From: Escherichia coli
Lineage (GTDB): Bacteria; Pseudomonadota; Gammaproteobacteria; Enterobacterales; Enterobacteriaceae
Assembly: GCF_003334765.1 (NCBI RefSeq)
Contig: NZ_QOWT01000005.1
Strand: one strand, 5' to 3'
Length of the DNA stretch: 64,000 bases
The notes beneath the pieces are model-generated. The model had not been told where the DNA came from. It ran no database searches and saw only the letters and a program-made list of their open reading frames with translations. Positions 10,537-55,950 of the stretch are shown here, one piece after another. Each line of letters starts with the position of its first letter. Positions within the stretch are counted from its first letter, which is position 1. A program made the translations under genes and the position numbers.

Positions 10537-10661
10537 GTAGGCCGAATAAGGCGTTCACGCCGCATCCGGCAATCAACGCCTGATGCGACGCTTGCGCGTC
10601 TTATCAGGCCTACAACTGTCGTTGACATGTAGCCGGATAAGGCGTTTACGCCGCATCCGGC
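10537..10661. repeat. REP/BIME cluster: three REP-like palindromic units (10537-10570, 10578-10613, 10629-10661)
   Basis: GCCGGATAAGGCGTTTACGCCGCATCCGGC-type REP sequences in alternating orientation, flanked by inverted copies of GTTGTCAACG, between convergent uppP and cca. Confidence 0.8.
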
Positions 10662-43237: not shown

Positions 43238-43720
43238 ATGACAAACCTGACACTGGATGTAAACATTATCGATTTCCCATCAATACCTGTGGCGATGTTG
43301 CCGCACCGCTGTAGCCCTGAATTGCTCAACTACAGCGTGGCGAAATTTATCATGTGGCGTAAAGAAACGGGGCTTTCTCCTGTTAACCAAAGCCAGACTT
43401 TTGGCGTCGCCTGGGACGACCCTGCCACCACCGCACCGGAAGCGTTTCGCTTTGATATCTGCGGCAGCGTTAGCGAACCGATTCCCGATAATCGTTATGG
43501 TGTGAGCAATGGTGAACTTACCGGTGGACGTTATGCCGTGGCCCGCCACGTTGGCGAGCTGGACGATATTTCACACACGGTATGGGGCATCATTCGCCAC
43601 TGGCTGCCTGCAAGCGGCGAGAAAATGCGTAAAGCACCGATTCTGTTTCACTACACCAATCTTGCCGAAGGGGTGACAGAGCAGCGACTGGAAACGGATG
43701 TTTATGTGCCGTTGGCGTGA
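43238..43720 (+). CDS. ygiV: GyrI-like small-molecule-binding domain protein
   Basis: 160-aa ORF MTNLTLDVNIIDFPSIPVAMLPHR... Confidence 0.82.
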   Translation: MTNLTLDVNIIDFPSIPVAMLPHRCSPELLNYSVAKFIMWRKETGLSPVNQSQTFGVAWDDPATTAPEAFRFDICGSVSEPIPDNRYGVSNGELTGGRYAVARHVGELDDISHTVWGIIRHWLPASGEKMRKAPILFHYTNLAEGVTEQRLETDVYVPLA

Positions 43721-43850
43721 TGCCTGACTCCAGCTTCCCTTATAAATTCCTGCTTCAAACTGGCGCTACTAATGCGCCACTTTCTTATATGGTCAATCAC
43801 TTTCCTTAAAGAATACGTTTTGTGTGGTCACTATCTCCGTACATCTAACT

Positions 43851-43895
43851 AACCTTTTAGGTGCTTTTTCATTGCTGTAATTAACCTTTTAGGTT
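43851..43895 (+). promoter_or_regulatory. mqsRA promoter with two ACCT-N3-AGGT operator palindromes
   Basis: CTAACCTTTTAGGTGC (43851-43862) and TTAACCTTTTAGGTTA (43883-43895), 30-60 bp upstream of the mqsR start. Confidence 0.75.
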
Positions 43896-43924
43896 ATAAC
43901 TAAAGTAACAGGGAGGCGGGGGTT

Positions 43925-44221
43925 ATGGAAAAACGCACACCACATACACGTTTGAGTCAGGTTAAAAAACTTGTCAATGCCGGGCAAGTTCGTACAACAC
44001 GTAGTGCACTGTTAAATGCAGATGAGTTAGGTTTGGATTTTGATGGTATGTGTAATGTTATCATTGGATTATCAGAGAGCGACTTTTATAAAAGCATGAC
44101 CACCTACTCTGATCATACTATCTGGCAGGATGTTTACAGACCCAGGCTTGTTACAGGCCAGGTTTATCTTAAAATTACGGTAATTCATGACGTACTGATC
44201 GTCTCGTTTAAGGAGAAGTAA
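43925..44221 (+). CDS. mqsR: Type II toxin MqsR (mRNA interferase)
   Basis: 98-aa ORF MEKRTPHTRLSQVKKLVNAGQVRTTRSALLNADELGLDFDG... Confidence 0.93.
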   Translation: MEKRTPHTRLSQVKKLVNAGQVRTTRSALLNADELGLDFDGMCNVIIGLSESDFYKSMTTYSDHTIWQDVYRPRLVTGQVYLKITVIHDVLIVSFKEK

Positions 44222-44222
44222 T

Positions 44223-44618
44223 ATGAAATGTCCGGTTTGCCACCAGGGAGAAATGGTTTCTGGCATTAAAGATATTCCATACACCTTCCGTGGACGAAAA
44301 ACAGTATTGAAAGGTATCCACGGTTTATATTGTGTCCATTGCGAAGAGAGCATCATGAATAAAGAAGAGTCAGATGCTTTCATGGCGCAAGTAAAGGCAT
44401 TTCGGGCTTCGGTGAATGCCGAAACAGTGGCACCTGAATTTATAGTGAAGGTTCGAAAAAAGCTCTCTCTTACCCAAAAAGAGGCAAGCGAAATTTTTGG
44501 GGGAGGTGTAAATGCGTTTTCGCGTTACGAAAAAGGCAATGCCCAACCTCATCCTTCCACAATCAAACTTTTACGTGTTCTGGATAAGCATCCAGAACTA
44601 TTGAATGAAATCCGTTAA
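44223..44618 (+). CDS. mqsA: Antitoxin MqsA (zinc-ribbon N-domain plus HTH-XRE C-domain)
   Basis: 131-aa ORF MKCPVCHQGEMVSG...CVHCEES (CxxC..CxxC) starting 1 nt after mqsR stop. Confidence 0.93.
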   Translation: MKCPVCHQGEMVSGIKDIPYTFRGRKTVLKGIHGLYCVHCEESIMNKEESDAFMAQVKAFRASVNAETVAPEFIVKVRKKLSLTQKEASEIFGGGVNAFSRYEKGNAQPHPSTIKLLRVLDKHPELLNEIR

Positions 44619-44626
44619 TTAATGGA

Positions 44627-44650
44627 AAAGCGGGGGCAACTCGCTTTTTT
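44627..44650 (+). terminator. Rho-independent terminator after mqsA
   Basis: aaagcg-ggggcaact-cgcttt hairpin followed by TTTTCTTT. Confidence 0.65.
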
Positions 44651-44750
44651 CTTTACCGGAGTGTGAGCCAAATCACTCGCGATAAGTTTGAGCGAACAAT
44701 GCCACAGGCGTATTGTTGTTGGGCTTATAATTTCTCCGGTAAGGAATACC

Positions 44751-46358
44751 ATGTATACGCGAAATTTATTATGGCTGGTCAGCCTGGTAAGTGCGGCTCC
44801 TCTCTACGCTGCTGACGTTCCCGCCAACACACCGCTCGCCCCGCAACAAGTCTTTCGTTACAACAATCATAGCGACCCAGGTACGCTCGACCCGCAAAAG
44901 GTGGAGGAGAATACTGCCGCGCAGATTGTGCTGGATCTGTTTGAAGGTCTGGTATGGATGGACGGTGAAGGCCAGGTGCAGCCCGCTCAGGCTGAACGCT
45001 GGGAGATACTGGACGGCGGCAAGCGCTATATTTTCCATCTGCGTAGCGGTTTGCAGTGGTCCGACGGTCAGCCTCTGACGGCAGAGGATTTTGTCCTCGG
45101 CTGGCAGCGCGCGGTTGACCCGAAAACGGCAAGCCCTTTTGCTGGCTATCTGGCACAGGCGCACATTAACAATGCCGCAGCTATTGTTGCGGGTAAAGCA
45201 GATGTTACATCGCTGGGTGTCAAAGCGACGGATGATCGTACTCTTGAAGTTACGCTTGAGCAGCCGGTTCCTTGGTTCACGACGATGCTCGCCTGGCCGA
45301 CGCTGTTCCCGGTTCCTCATCATGTCATCGCTAAACATGGCGATAGCTGGAGTAAGCCAGAGAACATGGTTTACAACGGTGCCTTTGTGCTTGATCAGTG
45401 GGTAGTTAACGAAAAGATTACTGCACGCAAAAATCCAAAGTACCGCGATGCGCAACATACAGTATTGCAACAGGTTGAGTATCTGGCGCTAGATAATTCG
45501 GTCACCGGCTATAACCGCTATCGCGCGGGAGAGGTCGATCTCACCTGGGTTCCGGCGCAGCAAATTCCCGCCATTGAAAAATCACTGCCTGGCGAGCTAC
45601 GAATTATTCCGCGTCTGAACAGCGAATATTACAACTTCAACCTTGAGAAACCGCCATTTAACGATGTGCGAGTGCGTCGGGCGCTATATCTTACGGTTGA
45701 TCGACAGCTTATTGCGCAAAAGGTACTGGGGTTGAGAACGCCCGCAACCACGCTGACGCCGCCAGAGGTAAAAGGCTTTAGCGCGACGACGTTCGATGAA
45801 CTGCAAAAGCCAATGAGTGAGCGCGTCGCGATGGCAAAAGCCTTGCTGAAACAGGCGGGATACGACGCCTCTCATCCGCTACGCTTTGAGCTGTTCTACA
45901 ACAAGTACGATCTGCATGAAAAGACCGCGATAGCGTTGTCTTCCGAATGGAAAAAATGGCTGGGTGCACAGGTGACGCTGCGCACAATGGAGTGGAAAAC
46001 CTATCTTGATGCCCGACGAGCCGGTGATTTCATGCTGTCTCGGCAGTCGTGGGATGCGACGTACAATGATGCTTCCAGCTTCCTGAACACGCTCAAAAGC
46101 GATAGTGAAGAAAACGTCGGTCACTGGAAAAATGCGCAGTATGACGCCTTACTAAACCAGGCCACGCAGATCACTGATGCGACAAAGCGTAATGCGTTAT
46201 ATCAGCAGGCAGAAGTGATCATCAACCAACAGGCACCGCTGATTCCTATCTACTATCAGCCGTTAATCAAACTGCTTAAACCCTACGTTGGCGGTTTTCC
46301 GCTGCATAATCCCCAGGATTATGTCTACAGCAAAGAGTTGTATATCAAGGCACATTGA
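44751..46358 (+). CDS. ygiS: Periplasmic solute-binding protein (OppA/DppA family, ABC-type)
   Basis: Start at ATG 44751 after AAGGA; MYTRNLLWLVSLVSAAPLYA signal peptide; 535 aa. Confidence 0.85.
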   Translation: MYTRNLLWLVSLVSAAPLYAADVPANTPLAPQQVFRYNNHSDPGTLDPQKVEENTAAQIVLDLFEGLVWMDGEGQVQPAQAERWEILDGGKRYIFHLRSGLQWSDGQPLTAEDFVLGWQRAVDPKTASPFAGYLAQAHINNAAAIVAGKADVTSLGVKATDDRTLEVTLEQPVPWFTTMLAWPTLFPVPHHVIAKHGDSWSKPENMVYNGAFVLDQWVVNEKITARKNPKYRDAQHTVLQQVEYLALDNSVTGYNRYRAGEVDLTWVPAQQIPAIEKSLPGELRIIPRLNSEYYNFNLEKPPFNDVRVRRALYLTVDRQLIAQKVLGLRTPATTLTPPEVKGFSATTFDELQKPMSERVAMAKALLKQAGYDASHPLRFELFYNKYDLHEKTAIALSSEWKKWLGAQVTLRTMEWKTYLDARRAGDFMLSRQSWDATYNDASSFLNTLKSDSEENVGHWKNAQYDALLNQATQITDATKRNALYQQAEVIINQQAPLIPIYYQPLIKLLKPYVGGFPLHNPQDYVYSKELYIKAH

Positions 46359-55846: not shown

Positions 55847-55950
55847 ACGTTCCTCCTTTATATGAACTCACCGGAGCAGGCTCCGGTGAGGTGTTGTGAA
55901 CTTAAGTCTGGACGAAATGCCCGAAAACGAAAGTTTGAGGCGTAAAAAGC

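Follow-up and report, generated by a model that had tools for sequence, protein, structure and literature searches.

The mqsRA operon of Escherichia coli is among the most studied chromosomal toxin-antitoxin (TA) systems; structures of the TA complex and of the antitoxin on DNA have been solved, and the genes are routinely annotated. The toxin, MqsR, has a RelE/YoeB fold, and its toxicity requires K56, Q68, Y81, and K96 (PMC2791442). It cleaves mainly at GCU (review PMC3920265). Brown 2009 made a structure-based case for ribosome-dependent cleavage, and other work found ribosome-independent cleavage at GCU (PMC2791442). The antitoxin, MqsA, is a fully structured dimer. Its N-terminal domain binds MqsR, and zinc through C3, C6, C37, and C40, and its C-terminal HTH-XRE domain serves dimerisation and DNA binding (PMC2791442). 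Two palindromes in the mqsRA promoter (p-mqsRA), of 15 bp and 11 bp and 20 bp apart in K-12 coordinates, are both MqsA binding sites, and three species seen by EMSA correspond to their single and double occupancy (PMC4894380). As far as the summaries in two reviews (PMC3920265, PMC7167474) and in PMC6918082 go, MqsR displaces MqsA from these operators and does not act as a co-repressor. An early report, as cited in PMC2791442, had MqsR enhancing the binding of MqsA to DNA, whereas later work, as summarised in PMC3920265 and PMC7167474, has it destabilising that binding. In a ΔmqsRA strain the operon promoter pRA is derepressed approximately 3-fold, and repression is restored in trans (PMC6918082). 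The antitoxin gene is additionally transcribed from pA1 and pA2, two promoters within mqsR that are constitutive, escape the autoregulation, and are jointly stronger than derepressed pRA (Fraikin et al., PMC6918082).

Several other systems share parts of this design. The MqsR/MqsA pair of Pseudomonas putida KT2440 (PP_4205/PP_4204) is also encoded toxin-first with a gap of 1-2 nt, and its operator has the form TAACCT-N3-AGGTTA; MqsA binds the site TTAACCT-GGA-AGGTTAA, and the MqsR-MqsA complex does not, such that binding is abolished by MqsR (PMC5422877). The toxin gene also comes first in higBA, hicAB, and rnlAB (PMC7167474). Extra antitoxin promoters are common to rnlAB and mqsRA, and displacement of the antitoxin from its operator by the toxin is common to hicAB and mqsRA (PMC7167474). 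In contrast to mqsRA, all three of these systems lack a zinc-binding N-terminal antitoxin domain. The HicA and RnlA toxins are unrelated to MqsR, HigB is only distantly RelE-like, and the C-terminal domain of MqsA is weakly similar in sequence to HigA-2 (E 4.6e-4). The three-gene MqsRAC system of E. coli C496_10 pairs an MqsR-family RNase toxin with an MqsA-family antitoxin, as does the locus described here, but its antitoxin depends on a SecB-like chaperone encoded by a third gene, and activity against phage T2 has been demonstrated; none of these features is present in, or shown for, the module described here (PMC9519451).

We analysed one mqsRA locus in a 64-kb stretch of E. coli DNA (64,000 nt; hereafter the window). 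We are all but certain of the overall explanation that follows, namely that the locus is the chromosomal type II TA operon mqsRA of E. coli, autorepressed by MqsA and supplied with antitoxin from pA1 and pA2.

Identity and layout of the gene pair

The initial annotation, which was made from the DNA sequence, had named the locus as mqsRA, and database comparison bore this out. MqsR has 100% sequence identity, from end to end, with chain B of PDB 3HI2 ('Motility quorum-sensing regulator MqsR'), and MqsA is 100% identical to PDB 2KZ8, 3GN5, and 3O9X ('HTH-type transcriptional regulator MqsA (YgiT/b3021)'). MqsR matches Pfam PF15723 MqsR_toxin (6.1e-35, model positions 1-95 of 95) and MqsA matches PF15731 MqsA_antitoxin (8e-56, model positions 1-131 of 131). 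MqsA also scores 146.7 bits against NCBIfam TIGR03830 (type II TA antitoxin MqsA family; cut-off 61.8) and matches the TIGR03831 YgiT finger. Over 24 kb that include the locus, the window is 100% identical to the chromosome of E. coli B771, where RefSeq places mqsR, mqsA, and ygiS at exactly matching coordinates, in the order qseC-qseB-ygiW-ygiV-mqsR-mqsA-ygiS-parC. We found nothing that counts against the identification. Coordinates of all features are given in Table 1.

Table 1. Features of the mqsRA locus, in window coordinates
Feature	Position	Strand	Description and basis
Accessory segment	43723-44649	.	927 bp, with the whole mqsRA module; junctions from comparison with mqsRA-negative loci L001 and L002
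Terminator-like hairpin	43761-43779	+	Lies after ygiV and before the mqsRA promoter, within the accessory segment; -10.9 kcal/mol, z -3.9; function inferred
Distal MqsA operator	43850-43863	.	TAACCTTTTAGGTg; core ACCTTTTAGGT at 43852-43862; one of the two published p-mqsRA palindromes (PMC4894380)
Putative -35 of pRA	43872-43877	+	TTGCTG; inferred from 17-bp spacing to TATAAC and geometry as in three plasmid homologues
Proximal MqsA operator	43882-43896	.	TAACCTTTTAGGTTA; perfect 15-bp palindrome; occupies the -35/-10 spacer and extends into the -10 by two bases
Putative -10 of pRA	43895-43900	+	TATAAC; inferred from alignment with TATAAT (L006), TAATTT (L008), and TAGAAT (L009)
mqsR Shine-Dalgarno	43910-43916	+	AGGGAGG; read from the sequence; ATG 8 nt further on
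mqsR	43925-44221	+	98-aa RelE-fold endoribonuclease toxin; ORF call, PDB and Pfam match, RefSeq
Probable internal promoter pA2	44056-44064	+	Extended -10 TGtTATCAT; inferred from the published 111-nt TSS spacing
Internal promoter pA1	44148-44175	+	TTGTTA-16-TAAAAT; inside mqsR; scan hit fitting published pA1
mqsA Shine-Dalgarno	44210-44215	+	AAGGAG; read from the sequence; inside the final mqsR codons
mqsA	44223-44618	+	131-aa antitoxin/repressor; N-terminal Zn domain and C-terminal HTH-XRE domain
Predicted mqsRA intrinsic terminator	44626-44651	+	Stem 44626-44648, then U-run; finishes at the right boundary of the accessory segment
ygiS	44751-46358	+	OppA-like periplasmic substrate-binding protein, 535 aa; outside the module; NCBIfam NF007287, 1293 bits; RefSeq

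The layout is also as initially described: an ORF of 98 aa and one of 131 aa, separated by a single base (T44222) between the mqsR stop codon (44219-44221) and the mqsA ATG (44223). Placement of the toxin before the antitoxin, the reverse of most type II systems, is a recognised peculiarity of mqsRA (PMC6918082). The CxxC pairs that had been noted in the N-terminal part of the antitoxin are C3/C6 and C37/C40, and the C-terminal HTH corresponds to residues 76-117 (Pfam HTH_3). In a five-sequence alignment with homologues, all four cysteines were invariant, as were the MqsR toxicity residues K56, Q68, Y81, and K96, all of which are present here. The toxin, the antitoxin, their close toxin-first spacing, and the promoter palindromes that characterise the MqsR/MqsA family were all four found. 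In E. coli K-12, mqsR (b3022) and mqsA (ygiT, b3021) encode identical proteins, and K-12 shares with the window the operators, the single base that separates the genes, the terminator, and ygiV and ygiS as neighbours. The module is without any difference from that of K-12; the window as a whole is nearest to B771, not to a K-12 record.

These identities define what we draw from each source. Protein identity, operator sequence and placement, the terminator, the segment boundaries, and the family-wide conservation of operators and key residues come from our own analysis. DNA binding and repression by MqsA, toxicity, GCU cleavage, and neutralisation of MqsR, displacement of MqsA by MqsR, and the activity of pA1 and pA2 come from the literature on identical proteins; of these, operator binding and repression, toxicity, cleavage, and neutralisation were established by experiment on proteins and DNA of identical sequence (PMC2791442, PMC4894380, PMC6918082, PMC3920265). 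Because mqsRA and its two operators are so well studied, annotated, and structurally solved, we regard the locus itself as ordinary.

Operators and promoters of the operon

The 11-mer ACCTTTTAGGT is present exactly twice, at the distal site and at 43884-43894. The two operators lie 73 and 41 nt ahead of the mqsR ATG and belong to a 17-nt direct repeat with 32-nt spacing, as found by a repeat search. No other ACCT-N3-AGGT occurs on either strand of the 64 kb, where 0.37 would be expected by chance. Two or more such sites anywhere in the window arose in 5 of 100 shuffles, which does not explain why a single promoter holds two copies of one 11-mer at a distance of 32 bp. Both palindromes reported by the initial annotation are therefore exact, and its coordinates were within a base or two. 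Its description of the distal site as imperfect applies only to the extended form: the 11-bp core is perfect, and a single mismatch appears at the 13-bp level (AACCTTTTAGGTg, 43851-43863). The proximal site is perfect, as it had said, but the interval it gave (43883-43895) is the 13-bp core AACCTTTTAGGTT of the full 15-bp palindrome, and the 16-mer it quoted, TTAACCTTTTAGGTTA, spans 43881-43896. Its statement that MqsA binds this sequence agrees with the published p-mqsRA sites, both of which are occupied in EMSA; the 20-bp separation of the K-12 palindromes is exactly the arrangement in the window (PMC4894380).

The same sites could be read as two members of a genome-wide regulon in which MqsA, as a global regulator, also controls rpoS, csgD, cspD, mcbR, and spy. 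This reading is backed by EMSA and qRT-PCR results of the Wood and Page groups (PMC4894380, PMC2791442; review PMC3920265), whereas csgD, cspD, and rpoS promoter activity was unchanged by mqsRA deletion or moderate MqsA overexpression in the hands of Fraikin et al. (PMC6918082). The window itself, whose reach does not extend to the distant loci, contains no further exact operator, and sites with one mismatch are about as frequent in it as chance predicts. We consider a global role for MqsA unlikely.

We asked how far this arrangement extends to plasmid homologues, which we found by tblastn. MqsR/MqsA homologues were present on 104 plasmids and in one Pseudomonas phage, and we compared four plasmid loci (L006-L009). 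On an Enterobacteriaceae plasmid (L006; MqsA 67% identical), TAACCT-CAA-AGGTTA and TAACCT-TTG-AGGTTA lie 31 bp apart upstream of mqsR. A Pseudomonas plasmid (L008; 54% identical) and a Diaphorobacter plasmid (L009; 50% identical) each carry a single operator upstream of mqsR, TAACCT-ATT-AGGTTA and, with one mismatch, TAACCa-ACT-AGGTTA, respectively. On a Pectobacterium plasmid (L007; 55% identical) the 165 bp ahead of mqsR contain no operator; because another ORF stops 4 nt short of this mqsR, the promoter is probably further upstream. All four plasmid homologues are toxin-first with an intergenic gap of 1-2 nt (2 nt in L009), and in this L006, L008, and L009 resemble P. putida as well as the window. 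A single palindrome, overlapping the RBS or the promoter spacer, is present in P. putida and L008, whereas the window and L006 have two, 31-32 bp apart.

An alignment of the promoters of the window, L006, L008, and L009 showed TAACC and AGGTTA to be invariant and the spacer triplet to be variable; with P. putida included, the triplets TTT, CAA, TTG, ATT, and GGA differ by locus. Invariant half-sites around a variable spacer would be the expected footprint of a dimer that reads half-sites. In the same four promoters 17 bp (3 nt plus TAACCT-N3-AGGT) separate a -35-like hexamer from the -10 hexamer, which starts at the TA of AGGTTA. The putative -35 and -10 hexamers are TGGTCT and TATAAT in L006, TTGCCA and TAATTT in L008, and TTGCCA and TAGAAT in L009, and it is from this shared geometry that we infer the exact pRA hexamers of the window. 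A strict promoter scan missed pRA: its hexamers were below threshold, as its -10 is without the final T. These sub-threshold hexamers fit the very low measured activity of pRA (PMC6918082).

The only sigma-70-like hit of the promoter scan in 43600-44900 was that at 44148-44175, inside mqsR, which we take to be pA1. Both pA1 and pA2 end 8 nt before their TSS, and the TSS of pA2 is 111 nt upstream of that of pA1 (PMC6918082), from which we derived the probable position of pA2. The initial annotation was silent on these two published mqsA promoters. At the other end of the operon, AAAAGCGGGGGCAACUCGCUUUUUU (44626-44650) consists of a stem followed by a U-run, and the 45-nt fold of 44612-44656 has a predicted energy of -14 kcal/mol (z -3.6). 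This element has the form of a typical intrinsic terminator.

Together, these elements suggest the following mechanism. A weak sigma-70 promoter, pRA (TTGCTG-17-TATAAC), would give rise to a transcript of mqsR and mqsA that ends at the terminator. MqsA dimers would bind the two TAACCT-N3-AGGT(TA) palindromes via their C-terminal HTH-XRE domains. On the proximal operator, MqsA would occlude the -35/-10 spacer and the -10; the distal operator would place a second dimer 32 bp (about three helical turns) upstream, just beyond the -35. Because the operators sit in or near pRA, MqsA occupancy would block RNA polymerase and autorepress the operon. MqsR, a RelE-fold endoribonuclease with GCU as its main cleavage site, would be neutralised by the zinc-binding N-terminal domain of MqsA. 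Since binding of MqsR displaces MqsA from DNA, excess toxin would derepress rather than co-repress the operon. Finally, because the toxin gene comes first, the two constitutive promoters pA1 and pA2 would secure an excess of antitoxin.

An accessory segment in E. coli

We compared the junctions of the locus with those of mqsRA-negative E. coli strains, in which 5 nt (GGGAA) instead of 927 bp join the ygiV stop to the ygiS leader. After the ygiV stop, these strains read TG-GGGAA-TCTTTACCGG. From this comparison it follows that the module is a 927-bp segment exchanged for 5 nt. The segment has a GC content of 0.41 (0.40-0.43 across 43850-44750), compared with 0.508 for the whole window, in line with the AT-richness noted at the outset. 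Of 5,426 complete E. coli genomes, 2,283 (approximately 42%) matched a 1,061-bp locus query along its whole length, and most other genomes matched only its last 111 bases, which are the ygiS leader.

Presence or absence of the whole segment agrees with the published status of E. coli type II TA loci as accessory genome (PMC7167474). We considered a transposon- or IS-borne insertion and rejected it, as there are no terminal inverted repeats or target-site duplication at the edges and the empty site has the unrelated GGGAA. A repeat search and reading of the junctions by eye likewise found no direct or inverted repeats flanking the 927 bp. Neither the locus nor the stretch found in place of ygiS in strain 1943 gave an Rfam match at gathering thresholds.

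We also compared the palindrome count across strains, a comparison that had been suggested with the initial annotation. An 86-bp promoter query matched 2,296 genomes, 2,127 of them identically and 169 with 1-4 differences. Three of the 2,296 mqsRA-positive genomes (N18-04097, SCU-104, and SW070917) have three operators, which arose via a 32-bp tandem duplication. No one-operator allele was seen: each of the 2,296 matches spans 80% or more of the promoter query. We inspected one variant, VG48B2, of those in the 95-99% identity class; it carries C for T at 43878, outside the operators and hexamers.

An accessory, AT-rich, and patchily distributed locus with homologues on plasmids and in one Pseudomonas phage invites comparison with phage defence. 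Under this explanation, the main function of mqsRA would be abortive infection or induced dormancy, as for MqsRAC of E. coli C496_10, which gives strong protection against phage T2 (PMC9519451, PMC10783111). However, the authors of the MqsRAC work state that two-gene MqsRA has no documented role in defence (PMC9519451). In the window there is no chaperone gene: the position directly after the antitoxin gene, taken by the SecB-like chaperone gene in MqsRAC, is occupied by the gene for the OppA-like binding protein YgiS, with the terminator between. A PADLOC search found no family matching MqsR, and only weak HTH-level hits of MqsA to RmrA. The K-12 background carries a native two-gene mqsRA. 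This background is the sensitive host in the MqsRAC papers and lacks the tripartite system (PMC10783111). We therefore judge anti-phage defence to be a very unlikely main function of mqsRA.

The link to ygiS and the role of mqsRA

The initial annotation had described ygiS as lying immediately downstream and as reportedly regulated by MqsR/MqsA. Its position holds: ygiS begins 132 bp downstream of mqsA on the same strand, at ATG 44751 and not at TTG 44688. A link was indeed reported, between MqsR, ygiS, and bile, by Kwan et al. 2015, as far as the summary in PMC6918082 and bioRxiv 10.1101/2023.09.23.559088 describe it. The form of the link needs correction, in that the summary in PMC6918082 presents it as cleavage of ygiS mRNA by MqsR, not as binding of MqsA, and it is disputed (PMC6918082). 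We weighed the explanation that mqsRA is a dedicated regulator of ygiS and bile-salt tolerance, in which either MqsR selectively degrades ygiS mRNA or MqsA represses ygiS directly.

The initial annotation had proposed looking for further operators upstream of ygiS. A search of 44619-44760 for ACCT-N2-4-AGGT with up to two mismatches found no site between mqsA and ygiS. The two-mismatch match to ACCTTTTAGGT nearest the ygiS leader is inside mqsA (44566-44576) and at the chance rate. For mRNA cleavage, ygiS does carry 43 GCU sites; however, its density of 26.7/kb ranks fourth among 41 window ORFs (mean 20.3, sd 5.8), and ygiS of an mqsRA-negative strain has 41 sites, so nothing marks ygiS as an evolved target. 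Enrichment of GCU in ygiS relative to codon shuffles (z = 3.9) was set aside, as window ORFs are positively biased by this measure (mean z 1.3, maximum 4.7). We likewise rejected GCU avoidance in the two module genes: with 1 site in mqsR and 3 in mqsA the densities are low, but comparison with codon shuffles showed no significant depletion, and AT-richness together with the shortness of the genes accounts for the low values.

In mqsRA-negative genomes ygiS adjoins ygiV (APEC O2-211, for example, has ygiS without mqsRA), and strains 1943 and 2017-02-2CC have neither ygiS nor mqsRA, so the two are not co-inherited. Deoxycholate tolerance was unaffected by mqsRA in Fraikin et al., who propose that the deletion in the ygiS study may have acted through polarity or read-through (PMC6918082). 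Another study, to the extent that it is cited in PMC6918082, found that mqsR overexpression raised the ygiS transcript. On this evidence, dedicated regulation of ygiS is quite unlikely, and the claim should be tempered, being contested and without cis-element support at the locus.

A long hairpin at 44650-44746 (-41 kcal/mol, z -4.2) raises a different idea. Its 5' arm abuts the right edge of the accessory segment (44649/44650), and its 3' arm takes in a perfect TATAAT and the ribosome-binding site of ygiS. Any transcript continuing past the mqsRA terminator would therefore carry ygiS in a translationally masked form. The mqsRA insertion would then affect ygiS in cis, and not via MqsR or MqsA acting on ygiS. 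We hold this to be improbable; if true, deletion of mqsRA, or its natural presence or absence, could change ygiS expression, and the disputed bile-salt phenotypes could be explained as a cis artefact.

As a calibration, the comparison was useful: the reading made from the sequence was accurate, at low discovery value. Our additions are modest refinements and not new biology: the segment boundaries, the 42% prevalence, the rare three-operator alleles, and the conserved geometry in which an operator fills the promoter spacer. Repression of rpoS and csgD, bile tolerance via ygiS, and roles in biofilms were not reproduced by Fraikin et al. (PMC6918082), and a role for mqsRA in stress response or ygiS regulation is contested. 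The most defensible reading of its role is that of a horizontally acquired, self-maintaining accessory module.

Presence and absence of mqsRA and ygiS

Comparison with three mqsRA-negative E. coli loci (L001, L002 and L003) revealed that the 927-bp segment carrying mqsRA (window 43723-44649) is a clean presence/absence polymorphism, with carriers making up about 42% of the complete E. coli genomes compared (5,426 in all). Where the segment is missing, the sequence is TGA-TG-GGGAA-TCTTTACC. The site lacks flanking repeats. The downstream gene ygiS is absent too from some mqsRA-negative strains (L001 and L003). In strain 1943, approximately 250 bp of unrelated sequence (L001 3125-3375), which matched no Rfam family, lies between two ygiS remnants, 24 nt from the start of the gene and ~45 nt from its end. 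We note that E. coli 3PT has an IS1 insertion inside the stretch corresponding to window 43700-44760, and that the mqsA of a 354-kb E. coli plasmid (NZ_MG591698.1) shows 100% identity to its chromosomal counterpart.

The ygiS leader

The ygiS leader (window 44649-44746) contains a long hairpin, with 92% complementarity between its arms (44649-44661 and 44734-44746) and a folding energy of -41.4 kcal/mol (z -4.2; fold of 126 nt). The 5' arm begins precisely where the mqsRA segment ends on its right side, and strains without mqsRA retain the hairpin sequence at 98-100% conservation. The Shine-Dalgarno sequence of ygiS (AAGGA, 44741-44745) falls in the 3' arm, and the hairpin also includes a perfect TATAAT at 44726-44731. 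The hairpin matched no Rfam family.

Annotation of ygiV and RNA elements in the window

Most RefSeq records name the upstream neighbour ygiV "AraC family transcriptional regulator"; one says "GyrI-like domain-containing protein". The match of ygiV to SbmC is weak (39.8 bits, cut-off 179). Despite its AraC-family label, the ygiV product is only a GyrI-like domain protein. Elsewhere in the window, Rfam models detected the RNA elements listed in the table. The two SIB_RNA copies are type I toxin-antitoxin loci; the scores of the FMN riboswitch, ES173 and naRNA4 all exceed Rfam gathering thresholds.

Coordinates of genes, RNA elements and the three-operator locus
Feature	Location	Strand	Details
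ygiV	window 43238-43720	+	160 aa
SIB_RNA (Sib antitoxin sRNA), two copies	window 18530-18679, 18905-19054	+	Rfam, 142 and 148 bits
FMN riboswitch	window 27751-27899	+	Rfam, 120.9 bits
ES173 sRNA	window 55885-55948	-	Rfam, 99 bits
naRNA4	window 10540-10610	+	Rfam, 79.3 bits
Three-operator locus of E. coli SW070917	L005 230-382		

Operator number and homologue promoters

Three MqsA operators were found in 3 of the 2,296 mqsRA-positive genomes (SW070917, N18-04097 and SCU-104), the extra one stemming from a tandem duplication of the 32-bp operator unit. The mqsRA homologues of a Pseudomonas plasmid (L008) and a Diaphorobacter plasmid (L009) share a conserved sequence, ATTAACCAACTTGCCA, directly 5' of the operator (L008 1154-1205, L009 1153-1204). 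Within it, a single TAACC half-site overlaps the -35-like hexamer TTGCCA. This conserved stretch may be a degenerate second operator.
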